Sequence record: OZ413489.1
DNA from: a phage
Length of the DNA stretch: 64,000 nucleotides
Reading direction: 5' to 3' (one strand)
Positions 8,884 to 57,461 of the stretch are shown here, piece after piece. The translations under genes were made by a program, and so were the position numbers. The notes beneath the pieces were generated by a model, which saw only the letters and a list, made by a program, of their open reading frames with translations, made no database searches and was not told where the DNA came from. Each line of letters begins with the position of its first letter. The stretch's first letter is position 1.

Positions 8884-10629
8884 ATGGCGCAAGACATGAC
8901 AAGCTTTGAGCAGGCGGTAGATCAAGTAATTGTTGATTCTGAACGTTTGCACCTGATTGTCAACGGTAACGCTGTGGATGAAGTTGTCGTAGAGGATGGG
9001 ACCACCATCCCTACGGTACGAAAAGCCATGCTTGACACCCTTTATTTTAAAACGCCACCGATCCCTTGGGCGTATGGTGCATCCACAACAGTTTTTAACC
9101 AGCTGTACGAGTTTAAAGGGGACACAGGCCCTCAGTGGTGGTACGCTCCCGCAGCATCAAAATCTAACCCGGTTAGAATGCCAGCAGATCCTTCACAATC
9201 TCCAAACTGGAGATTATATACCGATTCTGCAGTAATGGCAAAATACTACGCAAAACTTAACAGTCCGAGGTTCGAAGGTGACCCGCGAGTACCTACGCCT
9301 CCAATGGACGACAAATCCGAGTCTATAGCAAACACAGAGTTTGTTGTTGACTATGTGGATAGCATATTTGAAGCCATGGAGGGAATGAAAGTTACTGTAG
9401 GGTCTTTGGTGGTAAAAGGTCTTACAGAACTTGCTAACACTATAGTTGGTGGCACACTCACCTTACATGGGCCTGTTAATGGAGCAGATTCTACTGCACG
9501 CTTCAGGAACCTAATCCTCACGGCAAATACTTCTACACTTACTTTTGCGTGGAGTGATCCTAAGCATGCAGACTGGAGAAGCACAGAGCTGCAACCTCAT
9601 GAAGTGTCCACCCACAGGGTTATAGCTGACACTATAACTTCTGGGAAACCAGTGGCTAATAATAACGATGTGCATTTTGATGGTCTAGGTAATAACTTTT
9701 TTGACTACGTGTACATTCGTGGTAATGCCATGAAGGCAGCAACCGAACCGACATTGCAGGTAGATGGAACCACCAGGGTTAAGAACCTTGAGGTGACAGG
9801 CACTGTTACAGGGATAACCTACTCTGTCGATGGCACCATGATTTACCCTAGCTATATTGAAAGCACGGGGGACGCATTAATAAATGGTGATTTAGAAGTT
9901 GGCGGATCTGTAGTTATTCGAGGTACAGCCTCTATCCAAAACATAGCTCTGAATACCCTAAGAGTCAATGAGCGTGCAACTTTTGAAGGGGAAGGGCTTA
10001 CAGCCAACAAAGGTGTAATTACCGAGCTGACAACCACTACTTTAACTGCAACAACTGCAAACTCTGAAAACTGCAACGTTACCAGAAACTTGCAGGTAAA
10101 TGGAGATGTTAGTTTAAACGCAGCAGGGACGGGCACCACCTACCTTCACAACCTTGAAATATCCGGCACAGTGACTGGGTGGCTGCCAGACTTCTCTAAT
10201 GTCAACTTTGTTTGTAATGGCATTAACTCCAGTGGCAAGATAACCACCTCTCAAGAAATTGAGGCGGGTAAAACCATTACTGCCCCTACTTTCCACGCAG
10301 GAAAGGTAGATTTTGATTTAGAGGAGGTTGACGCGTCCAGTGGGACATGGACACCTAACGGGCAGGCCAGTATGTATGTTGTCCACGCGAAAGGGGATTT
10401 TACAATAGGACAATGGCCTGGTACATCAGCGGAAGATAAACCTTATCCATTCACTGCGGTTATCTATGTCATTCAGGATGCTGTAGGTCACAACGTGACT
10501 TTGCACGATAAGTATGCTATCCTGTCGGCAACGCCTGTTATTAATAACAAGGCTAATAGTGTTACCTTGCTGCAATTAACATATTGTGGTGTTGGTGATA
10601 TCGTAGACGTAGTAATTGCACAACGTTAA
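8884..10629 (+). CDS. Tail fibre / tailspike-like structural protein
   Basis: 581 aa; RBS aaggagaaatc; T/G/N-rich repetitive beta-type composition; terminator immediately downstream. Confidence 0.55.
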   Translation: MAQDMTSFEQAVDQVIVDSERLHLIVNGNAVDEVVVEDGTTIPTVRKAMLDTLYFKTPPIPWAYGASTTVFNQLYEFKGDTGPQWWYAPAASKSNPVRMPADPSQSPNWRLYTDSAVMAKYYAKLNSPRFEGDPRVPTPPMDDKSESIANTEFVVDYVDSIFEAMEGMKVTVGSLVVKGLTELANTIVGGTLTLHGPVNGADSTARFRNLILTANTSTLTFAWSDPKHADWRSTELQPHEVSTHRVIADTITSGKPVANNNDVHFDGLGNNFFDYVYIRGNAMKAATEPTLQVDGTTRVKNLEVTGTVTGITYSVDGTMIYPSYIESTGDALINGDLEVGGSVVIRGTASIQNIALNTLRVNERATFEGEGLTANKGVITELTTTTLTATTANSENCNVTRNLQVNGDVSLNAAGTGTTYLHNLEISGTVTGWLPDFSNVNFVCNGINSSGKITTSQEIEAGKTITAPTFHAGKVDFDLEEVDASSGTWTPNGQASMYVVHAKGDFTIGQWPGTSAEDKPYPFTAVIYVIQDAVGHNVTLHDKYAILSATPVINNKANSVTLLQLTYCGVGDIVDVVIAQR

Positions 10630-34466: not shown

Positions 34467-36896
34467 ATGAGCATGTGGTCGTTCGACTTTGAGTCATCCG
34501 GTTTGCTGGAAGACCCAGATCTTTATTATCACTGCGGCCTGTTTAAAGAGCTGAATAAGAACCGTTTTATGCTGTTCCTTCCTCTAAATGACCGCACACA
34601 CTACTCCGAGGAGGATATAGAAAAGGCTAAGAACTTCATTCTGGCAAAGAAAACTCTTTATAAAGATTTTGAAGTTCGCATAGCAGATTTTTCAGAGTTG
34701 GAAGGTTGGCTTACAGGAAATTCTGACTGGTCACCAACAGCTTTGAACTGCCATAACTGCTACAGTTATGACTTTATGCTGATGGAAAGATTATCTGGTA
34801 TTCATTTTGATATGTTCCGTGATCCTAAATGTATGGGGACTATCAACGATCACCAGGTTAACCTGTTTGATACGTTGGCGATGAGCCGAATCTTGTGGCC
34901 TGATCGCCCTTTACCAAAAGGTTGTCCGGACTCTGTATTCAACCCGGTTACTAAGAAAATGCAGCCTGTTGGTCCTCACGGCCTTATGGCATGGGGCTAC
35001 GCCCTTGGTAACCAGAAAGTTCAAATTGATGACTGGCGCGATCTTCCGTTGTGGAAGTATGTGGATCGTGTATTCGAGGACGTTATCATCCAGGAGCTGC
35101 TCTGGAAAGAGCTGGTAGCGGAATCAAAAGGTGTATTCTACGGCAAATCTGACATGCAGAACTTTATGTACGATCCGGCCAAAGAGAAGCCGAAAGGGTT
35201 CAAGAAGATCACCTGGAAGAACGCATTACGTCGAGGCATGCTGCAGCACTTCCTGATGGAGCTGCAGGCCCGTCAGGGTGTATACTTCGACATAGATGGA
35301 GCTATTGCTTTACGTGACCGTTGCGATGCGTGGATGAAAGAAATCGCTGATCGTGTTGAACCACAACTACCTTTAAAAGAGCTGTCAATGTCTCAGCGGC
35401 CCAAGTTCCCTGAAAAGCCGTTTAACCAAGACGGGACAATCTCTAATAATGGTTGGAAATGGTTAAAAGATAAGCTTGGCTATCCTGTAGACATGAGTGC
35501 TTTAGAGTTCAAAGCCCTGCCTAAGCGAGCATTTACCTCTACAGGAGATGTCAGCAAGATGGGGATAAAATGGTGTGAAGAGATGGGCTGCAAAGACCCC
35601 GATAAGATGGCTGATTTCTTGAGAGGCTATATTAAGGGCACCTCCACACCACAACCCTTACCTAAAGAGCTGATGGATCAGGCAATAAGTGATCTGCAGC
35701 AGAAGCGAATGCCTGACTGCAAGATACCTATGAAAATCAGCAATCAGGACGACATCAAGCGATACCTAATCAGTGCTGGTTGGCTCCCAACAATGTGGAG
35801 AACTAAAGATGTAACTAAAGACAGCAAGAAGAAAGCTTTACCTGATGCAGATGTTGATGCACGAGTATATGCATATATGGACGAGCTTTTGGAGTCAGAG
35901 TATTGTGACCTAATTATCAACTTCTGGAACAAAACTGATGCTAAGTTCCAGACAACCGTGCACAAGTTCCGAAGCTTTCCTAACTCCGAAAGGATTAAAA
36001 AGGAAGTATTCGGGAAAATACGTAGAAAAGCCAGGGCACTTATTACTTCTCCGCAACTGAAAGATACGTTTGGACACCTATGCCCAAATCTTGAAAAATT
36101 GAACGGAGAGATGGCTAAAGATATCGTCTTGTGGTTATCATTGCGAAACCGCAGATCGGTCCTTGATCCAATCAAGGAGGATAAGGTTGATACTGGTCTT
36201 CTTAATCACCCACGTTTGAAGATTGACCATAAGCTTCCTGCTAAAAGCTCTGGATTAACAAACACTTCCAGACAGAAACACAGTATTTGTGCAAACATGC
36301 CTAAACCATCTCCTAAAGTAGTTATGGGTAAAGAGATGCGTAGTCTGTGGGGTGTTCCTCCAGGATACTTTGAGATCGGTATTGACGGGTCCAACTTAGA
36401 GCAGCTCATCGGGGCTTGGGGTGCCTTTGAGTTCGACAACGGCTTGTATTATGATGTTGTAAGTAACGGAGACGCACACCAAAACAATGCTGAGGCATAT
36501 ACAAAAGTGGCAGGCAGAGAGGTGTCCCGTAACGACGGTAAACCTATCACGTATGGGGTTATGTACGGGGCACAAAAAGATAAAGTTGCAGATATGCTGG
36601 ACATCTCCCCAGAGTTGGGACAAAGGGTAATCGATGCACTCTGGGATGCCAACCCAGGTCTTAAGGGGCGCAAAGAGGATCTGGAGAAATTCTGGGAAGC
36701 AACAGGTAAGAAGTTTATCTACTCTTTTGATGGTCATGCTATCTGGACCCGATCTAAACACTCTTTACTTAATGCATACCAACAAAATGGCGGTGCATCG
36801 TTGTGTGACTTAGTTGGAATACTCATGCACCACCAGATGGTGAAGCGTGGGTGGTACGATGAAGGTGTTCGTCGTATTATTTATTACCATAAATAA
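34467..36896 (+). CDS. Family A DNA polymerase
   Basis: 809 aa; RBS aaggagaac; exonuclease-like segment (LFDTLAMSR); palm motifs DGSNLEQL (motif A-like) and KPITYGVMYG (motif B-like). Confidence 0.8.
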   Translation: MSMWSFDFESSGLLEDPDLYYHCGLFKELNKNRFMLFLPLNDRTHYSEEDIEKAKNFILAKKTLYKDFEVRIADFSELEGWLTGNSDWSPTALNCHNCYSYDFMLMERLSGIHFDMFRDPKCMGTINDHQVNLFDTLAMSRILWPDRPLPKGCPDSVFNPVTKKMQPVGPHGLMAWGYALGNQKVQIDDWRDLPLWKYVDRVFEDVIIQELLWKELVAESKGVFYGKSDMQNFMYDPAKEKPKGFKKITWKNALRRGMLQHFLMELQARQGVYFDIDGAIALRDRCDAWMKEIADRVEPQLPLKELSMSQRPKFPEKPFNQDGTISNNGWKWLKDKLGYPVDMSALEFKALPKRAFTSTGDVSKMGIKWCEEMGCKDPDKMADFLRGYIKGTSTPQPLPKELMDQAISDLQQKRMPDCKIPMKISNQDDIKRYLISAGWLPTMWRTKDVTKDSKKKALPDADVDARVYAYMDELLESEYCDLIINFWNKTDAKFQTTVHKFRSFPNSERIKKEVFGKIRRKARALITSPQLKDTFGHLCPNLEKLNGEMAKDIVLWLSLRNRRSVLDPIKEDKVDTGLLNHPRLKIDHKLPAKSSGLTNTSRQKHSICANMPKPSPKVVMGKEMRSLWGVPPGYFEIGIDGSNLEQLIGAWGAFEFDNGLYYDVVSNGDAHQNNAEAYTKVAGREVSRNDGKPITYGVMYGAQKDKVADMLDISPELGQRVIDALWDANPGLKGRKEDLEKFWEATGKKFIYSFDGHAIWTRSKHSLLNAYQQNGGASLCDLVGILMHHQMVKRGWYDEGVRRIIYYHK

Positions 36897-37163
36897 CATT
36901 GTGGCTTCATAGAGTAATCTATGTCGAATAACCTCTTTAACTGCGGGAAGCCTAAACCTTATGGCAAGGTAATCCGCAACGAAGCGCTCAAAAGAGCGAA
37001 CGCTCAGAGGCCATTCCGAAAGGAAGTAGACCAGCAAGTGCGGTCGAAATGGGAGGATTCCTGTGGTTGCTTATCATAGGAATATGAGATGGTCCGATCC
37101 TACGTGAAAACGTATGGCTATGCACGTAATGGTGCGGGGTAGCTTAACGACCTACCTGAACTA

Positions 37164-39306: not shown

Positions 39307-39695
39307 TGAAAAATATTTGGGATATCGATATCTTTGAAGCCTCTAAGCTTGACGGTGCTGATGGAGTGATTATGGTGTCTGATGGCAAGGCAACACTAAC
39401 TTCCGGAGATATCATCTATGCCTTGGACGAGCTGGCGCTTCTGAAATCTACCGGTAACACTTTGGAGGAGCGTCTTCAAGGATTCGCTTTCAAAGAAGGT
39501 ACAAATACAGCCATGATGTGCACCACACGGACAGTTCAGGTTGGTAACGGTGTCTATATGATTATTGCTGTGTGTCCTAAATTCAGCAACGTCAACAAAG
39601 ATGATGCTGACGCGGTCAACGATGTGGTTGTTCTCTTCGTGGGTGACGCTATGGCAGATCTGATGAATGCAGGAGAAGCAGCAAATGAAGACTGA
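39303..39695 (+). CDS. Hypothetical protein
   Basis: 130 aa; ATGA overlap. Confidence 0.45.
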   Translation: MMKNIWDIDIFEASKLDGADGVIMVSDGKATLTSGDIIYALDELALLKSTGNTLEERLQGFAFKEGTNTAMMCTTRTVQVGNGVYMIIAVCPKFSNVNKDDADAVNDVVVLFVGDAMADLMNAGEAANED

Positions 39696-46079: not shown

Positions 46080-46560
46080 GATTTCTAAAATGGATTTCCT
46101 CCTTTTGATATTTCACCGGGCCGGATATTTTAAAATTCTTAGAAAATCAGAAAATGGATCGAAAACTAAAATGGATTTTTCAGAGTAGGCGCGACAAGCT
46201 GAATAACTCATCCTATCGTTTGCACCATATTCCAGGCCACCATTATAGATTTCCCACACATGCTAACCTCCCTCTACTAGAACTTCCTCCACTTACCCTT
46301 GACCTTCTATGGTAACAATCTAACCGCTATCTTGAAGTTGCTGTGCAGCTTTCCAGGTACTCGATCTACTTTTCATTTCAGGGCTTGGATTTTCTGAAAA
46401 TTTTTCTCGATAAATTTCTCAGTACTCGATCTGTTTTTCGTTTTCTGAATCGGATTTTCTGGAAATCGTTCCGGCTCTCGACCTGAAATTTTTGGGGACG
46501 AAATCGATTTTTCGTTTTCAGAAATGGATTTTTAAAATTTCTATATGGGAATATTTTATG
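46080..46560. repeat. Iteron-rich AT-rich non-coding region (candidate origin / protein-binding array)
   Basis: Repeated words: aaaatggat(t/c) x4, gtactcgatct x2, ggattttctg(a/g)aaat x2, tttcgttttc x2; no convincing ORF. Confidence 0.5.
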
Positions 46561-46646
46561 GGATACTGTTTTATAGGAAATTGTTACGGAGGGTAATTAG
46601 CGTGCTAATTAAATTTATTAAATGCGAGGAGTTCTCATTTAGAATT

Positions 46647-46665
46647 TTGAATGATAATCATTCTC
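46647..46665. promoter_or_regulatory. Fur-box-like operator, copy A
   Basis: ttgAATGATAATCATTcTC: 15/19 to the Fur consensus GATAATGATAATCATTATC (15/16 over the core). Confidence 0.5.
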
Positions 46666-46677
46666 GTTTGCAGAATA

Positions 46678-46722
46678 ACGGGCAGGCCCGGTGATTGTCT
46701 CCCGGCCCCTACTGCCCCGGCT
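46678..46722 (+). other. Conserved hairpin element, copy A (core ggcaggcccggtgattgtctccc)
   Basis: GGGCAG-GCCCGG-loop-CCGGCCC-CTGCCC hairpin followed by ttgttatt; the 23-nt core recurs at 46822 and, inverted, at 54121. Confidence 0.4.
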
Positions 46723-46782
46723 TGTTATTATAGTATCACACAGGACAAAGAAAGCAAGGATTTTTTGCATAAATTTTTAAAT

Positions 46783-46801
46783 GATAATGATAACCGTTCT
46801 C
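46783..46801. promoter_or_regulatory. Fur-box-like operator, copy B
   Basis: GATAATGATAAcCgTTcTC: 16/19 to the Fur consensus; TTGCAT lies 16 bp upstream. Confidence 0.5.
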
Positions 46802-46807
46802 ATTTTA

Positions 46808-46858
46808 TGCAGCGCCCATCCCCGGTGGTTGTCTCCCCCGTCACCGGTGCCTGCCGTC
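46808..46858 (+). other. Conserved hairpin element, copy B (core ccggtggttgtctccc)
   Basis: CCGGTG...CACCGG stem around the loop gttgtctccccc; same core motif as copy A. Confidence 0.4.
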
Positions 46859-47060
46859 CTTTCGATAGGTATATCGTGCCACCTGGCGGGGCCGCTGTCA
46901 ACACTTTTCAAAAAATTTTTCTAACCTGATGCGCTAACCGCTGCAACCTGGCGGGGTCAGCCTGGCAGGACCTAACTGACCGGGTAGGAGAGAATGAAGG
47001 CTTGTAAACCTGGTGGGCCTATGCTACAGGATAGGTAACAATTGAAGAGGAGGTACAAAA

Positions 47061-48062: not shown

Positions 48063-48458
48063 ATGAATAAAAACGTACGCCGCATCATGAACGAACTGGC
48101 AAACGATGAAAAAATTATTGATATGCATTTGGTCAACATTTGCCGCCGTTGTGTAACATATAACAACCGCGCCGCAAAAGCGCGTGAGATGAACGCAAAA
48201 GGCACCTTAAAGCCCTTTCAGGTGGTTGTAAAATCTATGACCAGTGCAGCAGGCCAGGCGCATGACCACAACAACGGGAGCACTAATATTGATCCATCTT
48301 ACGTAATGAAACGGATCCGGACTTGCAAGAATAAAGAGCAGGTGTATAACGTCATAGATTGGCTGGACTCCCTGGGTGACGTGGTTTACAATAGGTTTTC
48401 TGCAGCTATTGAAATTCAGTTAGACAGGTTGGACGGGAAAGTACTGAAAACTTACTGA
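48063..48458 (+). CDS. Hypothetical protein
   Basis: 131 aa; RBS aaggaaaaag. Confidence 0.5.
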   Translation: MNKNVRRIMNELANDEKIIDMHLVNICRRCVTYNNRAAKAREMNAKGTLKPFQVVVKSMTSAAGQAHDHNNGSTNIDPSYVMKRIRTCKNKEQVYNVIDWLDSLGDVVYNRFSAAIEIQLDRLDGKVLKTY

Positions 48459-53770: not shown

Positions 53771-54034
53771 TTGTTACCGCTGGCTATCTTCAAAGATGCG
53801 GAAGCAAAACAACGCCGGATCTCAATACATGAGATCATCAACCTTAACGCTGGAGGCACACCATACCGCCCAGGACCTGGCCGTGAGATGGACAATACGC
53901 TAGCGATCCTGAAGATACGCCGTAAACGGTCCTCCCTTACTCTGGACTCATTACACACAATGCAGCCTCCGTTCCAGGTGACCGGGAAACGGATCGCCAG
54001 GTCCTGGACAAAGGCCAATGATCGGACCGTATAA
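53771..54034 (+). CDS. Possible gene with aberrant start (candidate frameshifted gene or non-coding transcript)
   Basis: 87-codon ORF with only a TTG start; a well-placed RBS (taggagttaaaatc) precedes an ATG at about 53764 in another frame that stops after 22 codons. Confidence 0.25.
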   Translation: MLPLAIFKDAEAKQRRISIHEIINLNAGGTPYRPGPGREMDNTLAILKIRRKRSSLTLDSLHTMQPPFQVTGKRIARSWTKANDRTV

Positions 54035-54120
54035 ATAAAAGTGTTTTGGTACTGATTTTGGGGTTGACTTGTTCGGCCCCTTTTGCTATTCTTATTAAAC
54101 GGGCGGCACTTGGGAACAGG

Positions 54121-54143
54121 GGGAGACAATCACCGGGCCTGCC
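54121..54143 (-). other. Conserved hairpin-core motif, copy C (inverted)
   Basis: Minus-strand ggcaggcccggtgattgtctccc, identical over 23 nt to copy A at 46681. Confidence 0.4.
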
Positions 54144-54168
54144 TGTCATATAAGAACTATAAAAACCG

Positions 54169-54197
54169 TTGACATCTGCCATGGGGTGGGGTAACAT
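54169..54197 (+). promoter_or_regulatory. sigma70-type promoter
   Basis: TTGACA-17 bp-TAACAT upstream of 54252. Confidence 0.45.
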
Positions 54198-54893: not shown

Positions 54894-55770
54894 TCTCCTC
54901 TTTTCCTACCACAAATGGCCCCGCCTGGCAAATGGAATAATCAACAAGCCAGCAATTAACCCCACTGTACAAACATACATATAAAATAACTATTGCATAA
55001 TTTTTCATTGTGTGGTAGCAGTGCCATTTTTACACGTTTTTCCTTCCAAAATTGCACGTAATGCAGCATTTGCACAAAATTTAACCTGATGCATATCTTC
55101 AATAGCTTGTCAACAACTAAAAATCTTTATAAGTCATACACTTACATAACTACAAAAACGTTTTCTACGTGAAAAATCGAGTATAACTATAGCCGCCAGA
55201 TCTCAGAATTTACGTACGCTCGCCATTCTATAGCCTGCTAAGCATTTATTCCAACCATAGAATAACGGAATAGTCAATACCTGCATAAAATAATTATTCG
55301 TGTAAACTGCATAACATAAATCGGCCCAGGTGTCAACATTTTTCGTAAACAGTCTGGAATTGTCACGTTAGGTTACCATAAGCAGAGAAATCTTTAGTCG
55401 TCTAATGTTTACTGTACATTACTATACTGACTGGAATCATTAGATGACTAAGAGAAAGATAAGAAATAATTAATAATGTAATTATTTTACCTGTAACAAT
55501 AAGGCAACTATGCAAACGAATGGCATGGCGCGACGGAGTCGCGACATAATATAAAAGCAGTAACCATCACCCCCGTGATAGTTTGTCTGCAAACTATTAA
55601 TCAGATCATAGTTGCCTTGTATTTAGTTAATCATGACATGACAAGCAAGGCAACTATAGATCTGCTAATAGTTGCCCTGCTTTTATATTATGTCATGCTA
55701 ATTATAATCAGTGCGATTATTGTCATGTATAATTATTGTCATGCAAACGAATGGCATGGCTGATTATCGG

Positions 55771-55860
55771 TGTGTAAACAGTCAATCATGTAAATGGTTA
55801 GCATGTGAACAATCAGGAATGTAAACAATCCAGTGTGTAAACTAATAGGTGTGTAAAAGT
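55771..55860. repeat. TGTAAAC-type iteron cluster
   Basis: gtgtaaaca, atgtaaatg, atgtaaaca, gtgtaaact, gtgtaaaag within about 90 bp. Confidence 0.45.
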
Positions 55861-56001
55861 GTCATGTTGTGTCAGTTAGGTCACATTATGTCAGACAAGT
55901 TTTTCTCCTCTTTGTCAAGTGCTGCATGAAAAATTTACAAGCTTGTATGGTAGCATTTTTGCGGCCCTGTTTACATTCAGTAATGTATGTATAATCCTTG
56001 T

Positions 56002-56165
56002 TGTGTGGGCGTTTAGACGTCTAGACGGTTGGAAGTCCACAGGTCAATATCTAATCTATCGGCTGCTAACTATATCCCACACATGTGTGGGCGTTTAGAC
56101 GTCTAGACGGTTGGAAGTCCACAGGTCAATATCTAATCTATCGGCTGCTAACTATATCCCACACA
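56002..56165. repeat. Perfect tandem duplication, 2 x 82 bp
   Basis: The unit tgtgtgggcgtttagacgtctagacggttggaagtccacaggtcaatatctaatctatcggctgctaactatatcccaca occurs twice head-to-tail with no mismatch seen; each copy contains the palindrome TAGACGTCTA; the junction forms CCCACACATGTGTGGG. Confidence 0.8.
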
Positions 56166-57461
56166 AATAGTAAGAAATATGATTGTTATATGCGTAAACT
56201 GTAACTCATGTTATCAATCCCTGTATGGATCGCCAGTGGTGCGCATAATAGGTATTATGTTAAATTGCCCGTAATGATAACAGTTCTCACAATGATAGGT
56301 ATTCTCATTCATCCACACAAAATAGGTTGCAAATGTTGTGCCACTGTGTGAACGGCCTGGCCTATTAATTTCTCTCACTGCCTCGATATTTGAGAATTGT
56401 TATAAGAATGAGAAGTATTCCCATTCCGTCCGCCTGGCAGCACTCCTGTAGGTCCTGCAAGGACTCTAGCTGAAAGCTAGACCCTTCGGGCCTCCCTGTA
56501 GGTCAGGTCAAAATCGTGGTAGAATTGGGCCTGTTCAGATATTTCTGGCTGACTCTTCAGGTCTGTGTGGGAAAAGCCAACCTCTCCGGCGGGGCAGGGG
56601 GTCATGACGGGAAAATTGCAGGTCAATTAAAAAATTTACGTGGTGTATGAAGCGCTCTTCAGGTAAGGCATGTATTATGGGATGAAACCCTCTTCAGGCA
56701 ATGATATTTGTGGGTGTGATATTTGCTGGAAAGCCAGATATGACGGGACTCCCGGCGGGGATGGGGTAGTACAGACAGGGAAAATATGAGAATGTAGTTG
56801 GGGAAATTGATCAGACAGGTAGAGTATGGAATATGTTACAAGTATGTTAAATATGGAGGTTGAATATCTGTAGGATTTGTGTGTAAAATCAAAGACTTAA
56901 GGGGTGTTGTGGTATTTTCTATAAATAATTCAAGTTTAATAGGCAATATTTGTCTCTATCCGCTTTGTGTGGTAAACAGATTCAGATTAGATTGGTTTAC
57001 AAGTGTATACATAATATACAAATTAAAGATACAAGAAACCCCCCTCCCCCTTCGGCTACCATTCACCTTTTCCTCTGACTGGTACTTAAACACTTATTCA
57101 GACTCTTCAGGTTATCACCCATATATCATATGGCAGTGACTGGTGTCCTCCGGCCCCTCTTTCGTCACCCGTCCGCTTCGCCATGCTAATGCCATAGCCA
57201 ATGGTTCGGTTGTTCACTCTGTTCACTCAGGTGTATCTCCATACCCCTTCAAACCGAAGAGAACAGAAAACCCGAATTACTCGGTAAAAGAAAAGAGAAG
57301 AACTTAATTTTATCAGGATAGGCAAGAATGTCAAGGCATGACTGCTCACTAAACAAGCAAACAGTCATGTGTGGAAGGTAAGTGATTGTGGTGGTGGGAA
57401 ATTTAGTTGAAAGATGTGTTATAGGTGCTCCCAGCACTTTAGCCGGGTAGCTAATTGTGTG

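Follow-up and report, generated by a model that had tools for sequence, protein, structure and literature searches.

Predicted Fur operators beside a conserved sequence block in a gene-free region of rV5-like phages

Fur boxes are textbook bacterial operators, and the question raised by this locus is what sequences of this type may be doing in the early region of a strictly lytic phage. The window, which is the whole stretch of 64,000 nucleotides that was analysed, comes from the genome of a Vequintavirus, an rV5-like myovirus of about 137 kb. Its top match is Escherichia phage EdH4 at 98.5%. Seventeen GenBank records within MG065646-MG065690, titled 'Campylobacter phage' and carrying no annotation, are 93-99% identical to this Vequintavirus region. 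Their 'Campylobacter' host labels look doubtful. The locus itself is a 750-nt gap without genes (46316-47060), with small plus-strand early genes in blocks on both sides.

An earlier note on this DNA had described the region as gene-free and the open reading frames listed there as not genuine genes, and both points are supported. ORFs 46651-46929 (+) and 53937-54197 (-) do exist as open frames. In six close relatives, the first of these (92 codons) reaches a stop after 92, 92, 95, 40, 109, and 7 codons. It is also unannotated in Cronobacter phage CR3, Salmonella phage SSE121, and Pectobacterium phage phiTE. A coding reading of 46651-46929 was rejected because the frame is broken in these relatives. 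No tRNA genes were found. All ten genes downstream of the gap belong to PHROGs without known function and have no Pfam match at the curated cut-off, so no link to iron is visible in them. A group I intron is present elsewhere in the window, on the plus strand at 36881-37116 (Rfam RF00028, 64.7 bits, E 4e-14).

The two Fur-type boxes that drew attention to the gap are box 1, TTGAATGATAATCATTCTC at 46647-46665, and box 2, GATAATGATAACCGTTCTC at 46783-46801. They match the 19-bp consensus GATAATGATAATCATTATC at 15/19 and 16/19 positions in the E. coli register. These are the best two 19-bp sites on both strands of the 64 kb, the next being 14/19, which bears out the claim that two close matches to the consensus are present. 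In the 9-1-9 register, with AATGAKAATNATTMTCATT as the consensus, box 1 scores 17/18 (46650-46668) and box 2 scores 16/18 (46786-46804), so that the boxes span 46647-46668 and 46783-46804 when both registers are taken together. Membership as a Fur operator was judged with GATAATGATAATCATTATC for the 19-bp form and AATGATAATNATTATCATT for the 9-1-9 form. Six close relatives have box 1 without any change, and it holds a perfect 7-1-7 dyad, GAATGAT-A-ATCATTC. The dyad of box 2, AATGATAAC-C-GTTCTCATT, has 8/9 matches per arm. A second site (46780, 15/18) overlaps box 2 at an offset of 6 nt upstream, and a weak third Fur-type site (46621-46639, 14/18) lies inside an AT-rich stretch.

Sites of this quality are rare by chance. 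Five sites of at least 15/18 were observed in the 64-kb window, compared with 0.19 expected from Markov shuffles, and all five fall in two gene-free regions, this gap and 55.4-57.45 kb. The latter region, about 2 kb long, has further boxes within 56273-56425, at 56273 (14/18), 56291 (16/18), and 56407 (16/18). This gene-free stretch (55400-57450), holding the boxes at 56273-56309 and 56407-56425, is where plus- and minus-strand gene blocks converge. Directly after the box at 56291 comes TCATCCACA, which matches a DnaA box at 8/9 positions. Close by, 56002-56165 is a perfect tandem duplication of an 82-nt unit with AGACGTCTAGACG in each copy, a sequence resembling two tandem MetJ met-boxes (consensus AGACGTCT).

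That the boxes are Fur-type operators by sequence, and thus predicted Fur sites, is well supported. The homologous site in CR3 and SSE121 is a perfect 9-1-9 palindrome, AATGAGAATCATTCTCATT, and in CR3, phiTE, and one further genome (L376), three to four boxes are stacked upstream, the number of further boxes being three in CR3 and phiTE. AATGAGAATCATTCTCATT has every letter in common with the Fur-box consensus that was derived by experiment from Fur-regulated Xanthomonas genes, and shares 84% identity with the consensus sequences for Shewanella and Bacillus (PMC1790865). The 17-mer of box 1 in the window, GAATGATAATCATTCTC, is found exactly in many bacterial genomes. Among neighbours picked by eye from a random sample of these, the genes beside the 17-mer encode siderophore-binding proteins (Peripla_BP_2, twice), a FecCD permease, a ZnuA-type binding protein, a Fur-family regulator, and an EntD-type transferase. 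In unrelated viral contigs that carry the site, the base that completes the 7-1-7 palindrome is present in 119 of 124 cases. The proposal that these are Fur-like operators is thus strengthened by the consensus match, the dyads, the perfect palindrome of the relatives, and the presence of the 17-mer before bacterial iron-uptake genes, all of which are properties of the sequence.

The palindromes could also be operators for a repressor encoded by the phage itself, their likeness to Fur boxes being coincidental. Many small early proteins without known function are common to all rV5-like phages, and the phage sites systematically favour TTCTC over the TTATC of the E. coli consensus. However, the G/C variant is itself a published Fur consensus, and the box-1 17-mer stands before iron-uptake genes in bacteria. 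The same palindrome is also present in unrelated viruses such as T5-like phages and GC-rich contigs, often as tandem arrays, and a phage-specific repressor therefore appears very improbable.

The boxes can be compared with those at repressed bacterial promoters, such as E. coli iucA, fhuF, and ryhB and the Xanthomonas TonB-dependent receptor genes. They share with these the 19-bp consensus dyad, sites that overlap at a 6-nt offset (46780/46786), clustering, and, at box 1, a position over the -35/-10 spacer of a putative promoter (PMC2189734, PMC1790865). The sites in the window differ in belonging to a strictly lytic phage, where no iron gene follows them, and in being linked to a conserved 30-nt block and a putative opposing promoter; in addition, some copies are downstream of a promoter and not on one. 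Fur-regulated genes have been described on temperate phages and prophages, namely sitABCD (lambdoid) and nohA, ynaE, and ydfK (cryptic prophages) (PMC6969025, PMC2189734). These resemble the present case in having a host Fur box on phage-derived DNA. They differ in that they serve cargo or prophage genes in a lysogen, whereas the boxes described here belong to the core early region of a virulent phage and have been kept in several genera.

Next to the boxes is another conserved sequence. Its 16-nt core, CCGGTGATTGTCTCCC, is present at 46688 (+), 46822 (+, with one mismatch), and 54121 (-), which is three copies compared with 0.35 expected, and 0 of 100 shuffles reached three. When 20 family members were used to build a sequence model of the block, the model identified exactly these three copies in the window. 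Copy 1 (TAACGGGCAGGCCCGGTGATTGTCTCCC, with a variable distal arm) extends over 46676-46723 and scores 51.1 bits, with a predicted hairpin at 46680-46717. Copy 2, with the core CCGGTGGTTGTCTCCC at 46822-46837 and also a predicted hairpin, extends over 46811-46857 and scores 28.3 bits. The distance from box to core is 22 nt in copy 1 and 20 nt in copy 2. The invariant part is about 30 nt, TAgCGGGCAgg.cCGGTGWTTGTCTCC, and adjoins the Fur box. The distal arm varies by lineage, each version pairing with the block in some register.

Conservation is concentrated here. Positions 46647-46705 are the only part of the gap that aligns by blast (83-88%) in Cronobacter, Salmonella, Pectobacterium, Serratia, and Klebsiella phages. 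Among six Vequintavirus genomes, about 6% of the columns are variable in 46627-46866, compared with about 25% in the flanks. The module is kept in rV5-like phages from Escherichia to Shewanella.

The earlier note had called the hairpins conserved, which was not borne out. Applied to 20 copies from at least six lineages, RNAalifold returned 0 pairs, with no consensus structure or covariation on either strand. In one relative (L096), GG is changed to CC at 46685-46686 in one stem arm without a compensating change. Minimum free energies of the hairpins are -17 to -22 kcal/mol, and with z of -0.25 to -2.07 the hairpins of the window are barely more stable than shuffled sequence. Mean folding z is -0.66 on the plus (gene) strand and -1.16 on the opposite strand, a weak and mixed strand preference. 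The conserved thing is the sequence block, not the hairpin structure. Covariance and conservation in relatives had been suggested as a check; the motif and block are kept in those relatives, and the hairpin has no consensus pairs.

The GC hairpins could instead be bidirectional terminators that separate two early transcription units, a reading we consider quite improbable. In favour of it, a 'terminator' is annotated on the block in the phiTE record, opposed putative promoters flank the hairpins, and the minimum free energies are those given above. However, the terminator scan found no stem with a T-run after either hairpin on either strand, and the stability is near that of shuffled sequence. 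It is also the sequence and not the pairing that is conserved, and a separate canonical terminator is present upstream of copy 3. Since the hairpins lack a terminator, any discrete short RNA is hypothetical. A Fur-repressed small RNA of the RyhB or PrrF type is not supported either, as neither a conserved structure nor a match to a curated RNA family was found. In Rfam at E up to 5, nothing overlaps the boxes or hairpins of the window and none of the matches reaches its gathering score; the only matches in the gap are far below threshold, in the repeat region at 46419-46537. For the CR3 hairpin there is only a far-sub-threshold match to a microRNA precursor (18.5 bits against a gathering score of 70, E 4.3). 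A mimic of ToxI or pseudo-ToxI (tandem 36-nt repeats) was also rejected, as the phiTE escape locus is at 106,714-106,772, the element is at 39,566-39,624 of the phiTE genome, and only a 7-mer is common to them.

When viral contigs were scanned with the 15-nt core alone, mostly chance matches were returned. Two contigs, L068 (522-548 and 1810-1831) and L051 (697-728), have a sigma-70 promoter followed about 25 nt on by GGAGACAAWCACC. Of these, L068 carries the unit twice and lacks a Fur box. Neither contig has a DNA match in GenBank phages or a protein match to the loci compared. Because they carry this unit of promoter plus block, the block may be a portable promoter-proximal element.

Promoter-like sequences surround the block on both strands. 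On the plus strand, box 1 fills the spacer of a putative promoter that Fur would occlude, with the -35 TTGAAT (46647-46652), an 18-nt spacer, and the -10 CAGAAT (46671-46676). At 8/12 it is below the threshold of the consensus promoter scan. Ten phages from at least three genera, whose flanks cannot be aligned, all have the arrangement TTGAAT-N18-yAGAAT, the box occupying the spacer. Escherichia phage Av-05 shares this geometry, as do the Baltic Sea ice phages 1/4 and 1/40 of Shewanella. Conservation of CAGAAT may not mean that it functions as a -10, because it is kept in copies without a -35. Box 2 has no credible promoter on the plus strand.

On the opposite strand, a sigma-70-type promoter is present 20-35 nt from the block in every lineage. 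The promoter scan reported it in CR3 (1611>1583, TTGCAA-17-TATATT), in a Shewanella phage (1316>1289, TTGCAA-16-TATAAT), and in contig L027 (2851>2824, TTGACA-16-TATTAT), where it faces a Fur-overlapped TTTAAA-18-TATATT. Counterparts in the window are weaker than these scan-reported promoters of the relatives. The one facing copy 1 (46727-46757, minus strand) has the -35 TTGCTT at 46757-46752 and as -10 either TACTAT with a 16-nt spacer or TATAAT with a 19-nt spacer. It fails a simple consensus scan, whereas the orthologous promoters in relatives are strong. The one facing copy 2 (46873-46901, minus strand) has the -35 TTGACA at 46901-46896, a 17-nt GC-rich spacer, TGg, and the -10 CACGAT at 46878-46873. 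In the repeat analysis (I13) it was paired with the TGTTGACA promoter family. ACCTGGCGGGG is present at 46881, 46946, and 47184, three copies compared with 0.38 expected, with the variants CCTGGCAGG and CCTGGTGGG nearby. The minus-strand promoter at 46901-46873 has one copy of ACCTGGCGGGG as its GC-rich spacer, and the CR3 and phiTE promoters have similar spacers.

The suggestion that Fur-controlled promoters drive short structured RNAs from these sites can thus be kept in part. Box 1 does lie in a conserved promoter-like spacer. Box 2 has no promoter, and neither a terminator nor a conserved structure supports the RNA. As for the strand, the plus-strand geometry at box 1 is conserved, and the promoter that is present in every lineage is on the opposite one.

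These features may together form a control module of rV5-like phages, situated where two blocks of small early genes leave a gap, and gated by host Fur through convergent promoters. This is the best-supported reading, and we put it at slightly less than an even chance. The motifs, their geometry, and their conservation are observed; Fur binding, promoter activity, and the outcome are predicted from them. Read on the GGAGACAAWCACC strand, the unit would consist of a sigma-70-type promoter, about 20-30 nt, the block of about 30 nt, a few bases, and the Fur box. As RNA the block would read GGAGACAAWCACCGG ... UGCCCGYUAUUC. In copy 1, the far end of the Fur box would be the -35 (TTGAAT) of a second, opposing promoter, and the block would supply its -10 (CAGAAT) and a GC-rich start region, so that two putative promoters face each other across about 50 nt. 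With iron present, Fe-Fur would sit on the boxes, the gene-sense promoter would be occluded, and the opposing transcripts would be blocked or truncated. With iron absent, Fur would leave, and the gene-sense promoter would fire toward the genes from 47061 onward and interfere with the antisense promoter. The arrangement suggests that the phage may read the iron status of its host.

Face-to-face promoters and cis-antisense switches are known from IS10 (RNA-IN/RNA-OUT) and from pR-pL of coliphage 186. As in those systems, the putative promoters here are opposed, their predicted starts are about 50 nt apart, and the overlap is predicted to be able to form a stem-loop. Unlike those systems, a host metal sensor would set the balance here. 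In addition, different genera have kept the sequence of the overlap, a constraint that would not be needed for cis-antisense pairing alone.

The third copy of the block shows which parts of the module can be separated. The earlier note had reported an inverted copy of the core about 7.4 kb away. It is present at 54121 (-) and extends to an inverted match of 29 nt at 93% (46675-46703 / 54121-54149). The full copy 3 (54102-54149, 36.2 bits) is inverted relative to copies 1 and 2, so that GGAGACAATCACC is on the gene-sense plus strand. It is preceded on the plus strand, at 54060-54092, by a terminator-like hairpin (54060-54080) whose loop provides the -35 of TTGACT-17-TATTCT (54064-54092; 9/12, TG). 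This promoter, which was reported by the scan, reads into copy 3. A 49-nt cassette of the same terminator-plus-promoter design is present in four copies in the window, at 48458, 49086, 49421, and 52801. It has a terminator-like hairpin (GATGGCC...GGCCATC) with a TTGACT -35 in the loop, followed by a -10-like box.

An inverted second copy about 7.3-7.4 kb off recurs in CR3 and in Klebsiella-type contigs. There it consists, in the gene sense, of a terminator, a promoter, the block, UGCCCGCUAUUC, and a Fur box. Copy 3 in the window has no Fur box, and the orthologous copies in CR3 and the Klebsiella-type phage retain one. Because copy 3 has lost its box, block and box appear to be separable. Pairing in trans between RNAs of copy 1 and copy 3 was rejected as a conserved feature. 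The 29-nt match holds in Vequintavirus, but the two CR3 copies differ (A vs T) and the Klebsiella-type loop is different (GGAGGAAAGTCACC).

The number and placing of the boxes also fit another use. They could be Fur decoys, with replicating phage DNA titrating Fur and derepressing the host iron regulon, the overlap with promoters being incidental. There are at least six Fur-type sites per 64 kb, all in non-coding DNA, and box 2 is conserved without a promoter. Tandem arrays are found in relatives and in uncultivated phages (four sites in L140 and three in L166, for example). In Fur titration assays, one box is enough when it is carried on a high-copy plasmid, whose copy number is similar to that of a phage burst. 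However, a pure decoy would not need to keep a fixed position relative to the promoter hexamers, and this position is strictly conserved from genus to genus. Fur is also abundant in the cell, the sites are few per genome, and the benefit to the phage is hypothetical. Titration as the function of the boxes is therefore considered distinctly unlikely.

A more serious rival comes from the left half of the gap. Three iteron-like direct repeats (CTCGATC ... TTTTCGTTT ... GGATTTT) were found by repeat analysis at 46347-46532 with a spacing of about 65-74 nt. An AT-rich stretch (46490-46646, GC 0.23-0.33) extends from the repeats to box 1. Direct repeats with an adjoining AT-rich region, as expected of an iteron-type origin, are thus present. 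Equivalent repeat sets are at the same position in CR3, phiTE, and SSE121, which share with the window the order of repeats, Fur boxes, and block. The gap could then be a replication origin or its control region, with minus-strand promoters sending activating or priming transcripts into it, and with Fur and the opposing promoter tying initiation to iron. Besides the repeats, the AT-rich stretch, and their conserved order, this reading has in its favour that the minus-strand promoters are aimed into the repeats. The density of DnaA boxes in viral contigs is about 4-fold higher within 150 nt of a Fur-type box (0.63 vs 0.16 per kb), and in T5-like phages a perfect Fur palindrome lies beside a repeat region rich in DnaA boxes. 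However, GC skew has no inversion at 46.5 kb, only a smaller magnitude, no initiator gene was identified, and there is no consensus DnaA box in the gap. The origin of rV5 has not been mapped (PMC3606486). An origin here is, on balance, unlikely. It is nevertheless a serious rival, because the module directly follows the repeats and AT-rich stretch in an order conserved across genera, and it is compatible with a Fur-gated module and not exclusive of it.

Fur-type boxes are not peculiar to this phage; Fur-type palindromes are also common in unrelated phages, including the terminal repeats of T5-like phages. Tandem arrays of two to four Fur-type boxes at a spacing of about 22-34 nt were observed in diverse uncultivated phages (L140, L141, L146, L166, L169, L219, L234, and L237), and pairs of the perfect TTATCCACA in L181, L368, L377, and L387. 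In T5-like phages (MF431730.1 at 9053-9314; L128 around 8088), the perfect Fur palindrome caAATGAGAATCATTCTCATTTGa is found in the left terminal repeat, at the edge of the non-coding repeat region of the injection stop, and more than 300 records match. This region of T5 (non-coding repeat region 3, the iss region) resembles the present gap in being large and gene-free and in having repeats, palindromes, and sites for host DNA-binding proteins. Within the left terminal repeat, its perfect Fur-type palindrome is found at about 9.05-9.3 kb. Unlike the rV5-type module, it belongs to an unrelated family without the 30-nt block. A preprint that catalogues the T5 palindromes treats DnaA boxes and makes no mention of Fur. 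The Fur-type site would offer a candidate identity for one unexplained palindrome in the T5 injection-stop region.

In the literature searched, Fur boxes were found reported only on prophage cargo and cryptic-prophage genes, and none for rV5-like or other virulent phages. The rV5 genome paper gives promoters and terminators and does not mention this element (PMC3606486). No earlier report was found of Fur boxes as conserved core regulatory elements of virulent phages. A general reading would be that rV5-like, T5-like, and many uncultivated phages place perfect Fur operators in key non-coding control or origin regions, often as arrays and near DnaA boxes. If so, early transcription or replication may be gated, or host iron uptake reprogrammed. 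That iron sensing through Fur boxes is a general and so far undescribed layer of lytic phage development is possible but doubtful. If Fur does bind, a family of E. coli phages of the type used in therapy would tune early expression or replication to iron. This could bear on the efficacy of phage therapy, because the iron available in laboratory media is very different from that in the gut or in infected tissue.

Another conserved element was observed just 3' of the Fur module in relatives. It is a non-coding element of about 110 nt, CTACCGGCGATCCACCTTCC...GTTAGCCCCGCCTTTTCGCCGTGGGGTGGCG, which is highly conserved across genera. It lies at 1640-1730 of L004, the CR3 locus, and has counterparts in phiTE, SSE121, and Klebsiella-type contigs. 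The window lacks it, and the second Fur box and block copy stand there instead. The element has possible pseudoknot-like complementarity between CGGCG and CGCCG and between CCACC and GGTGG.
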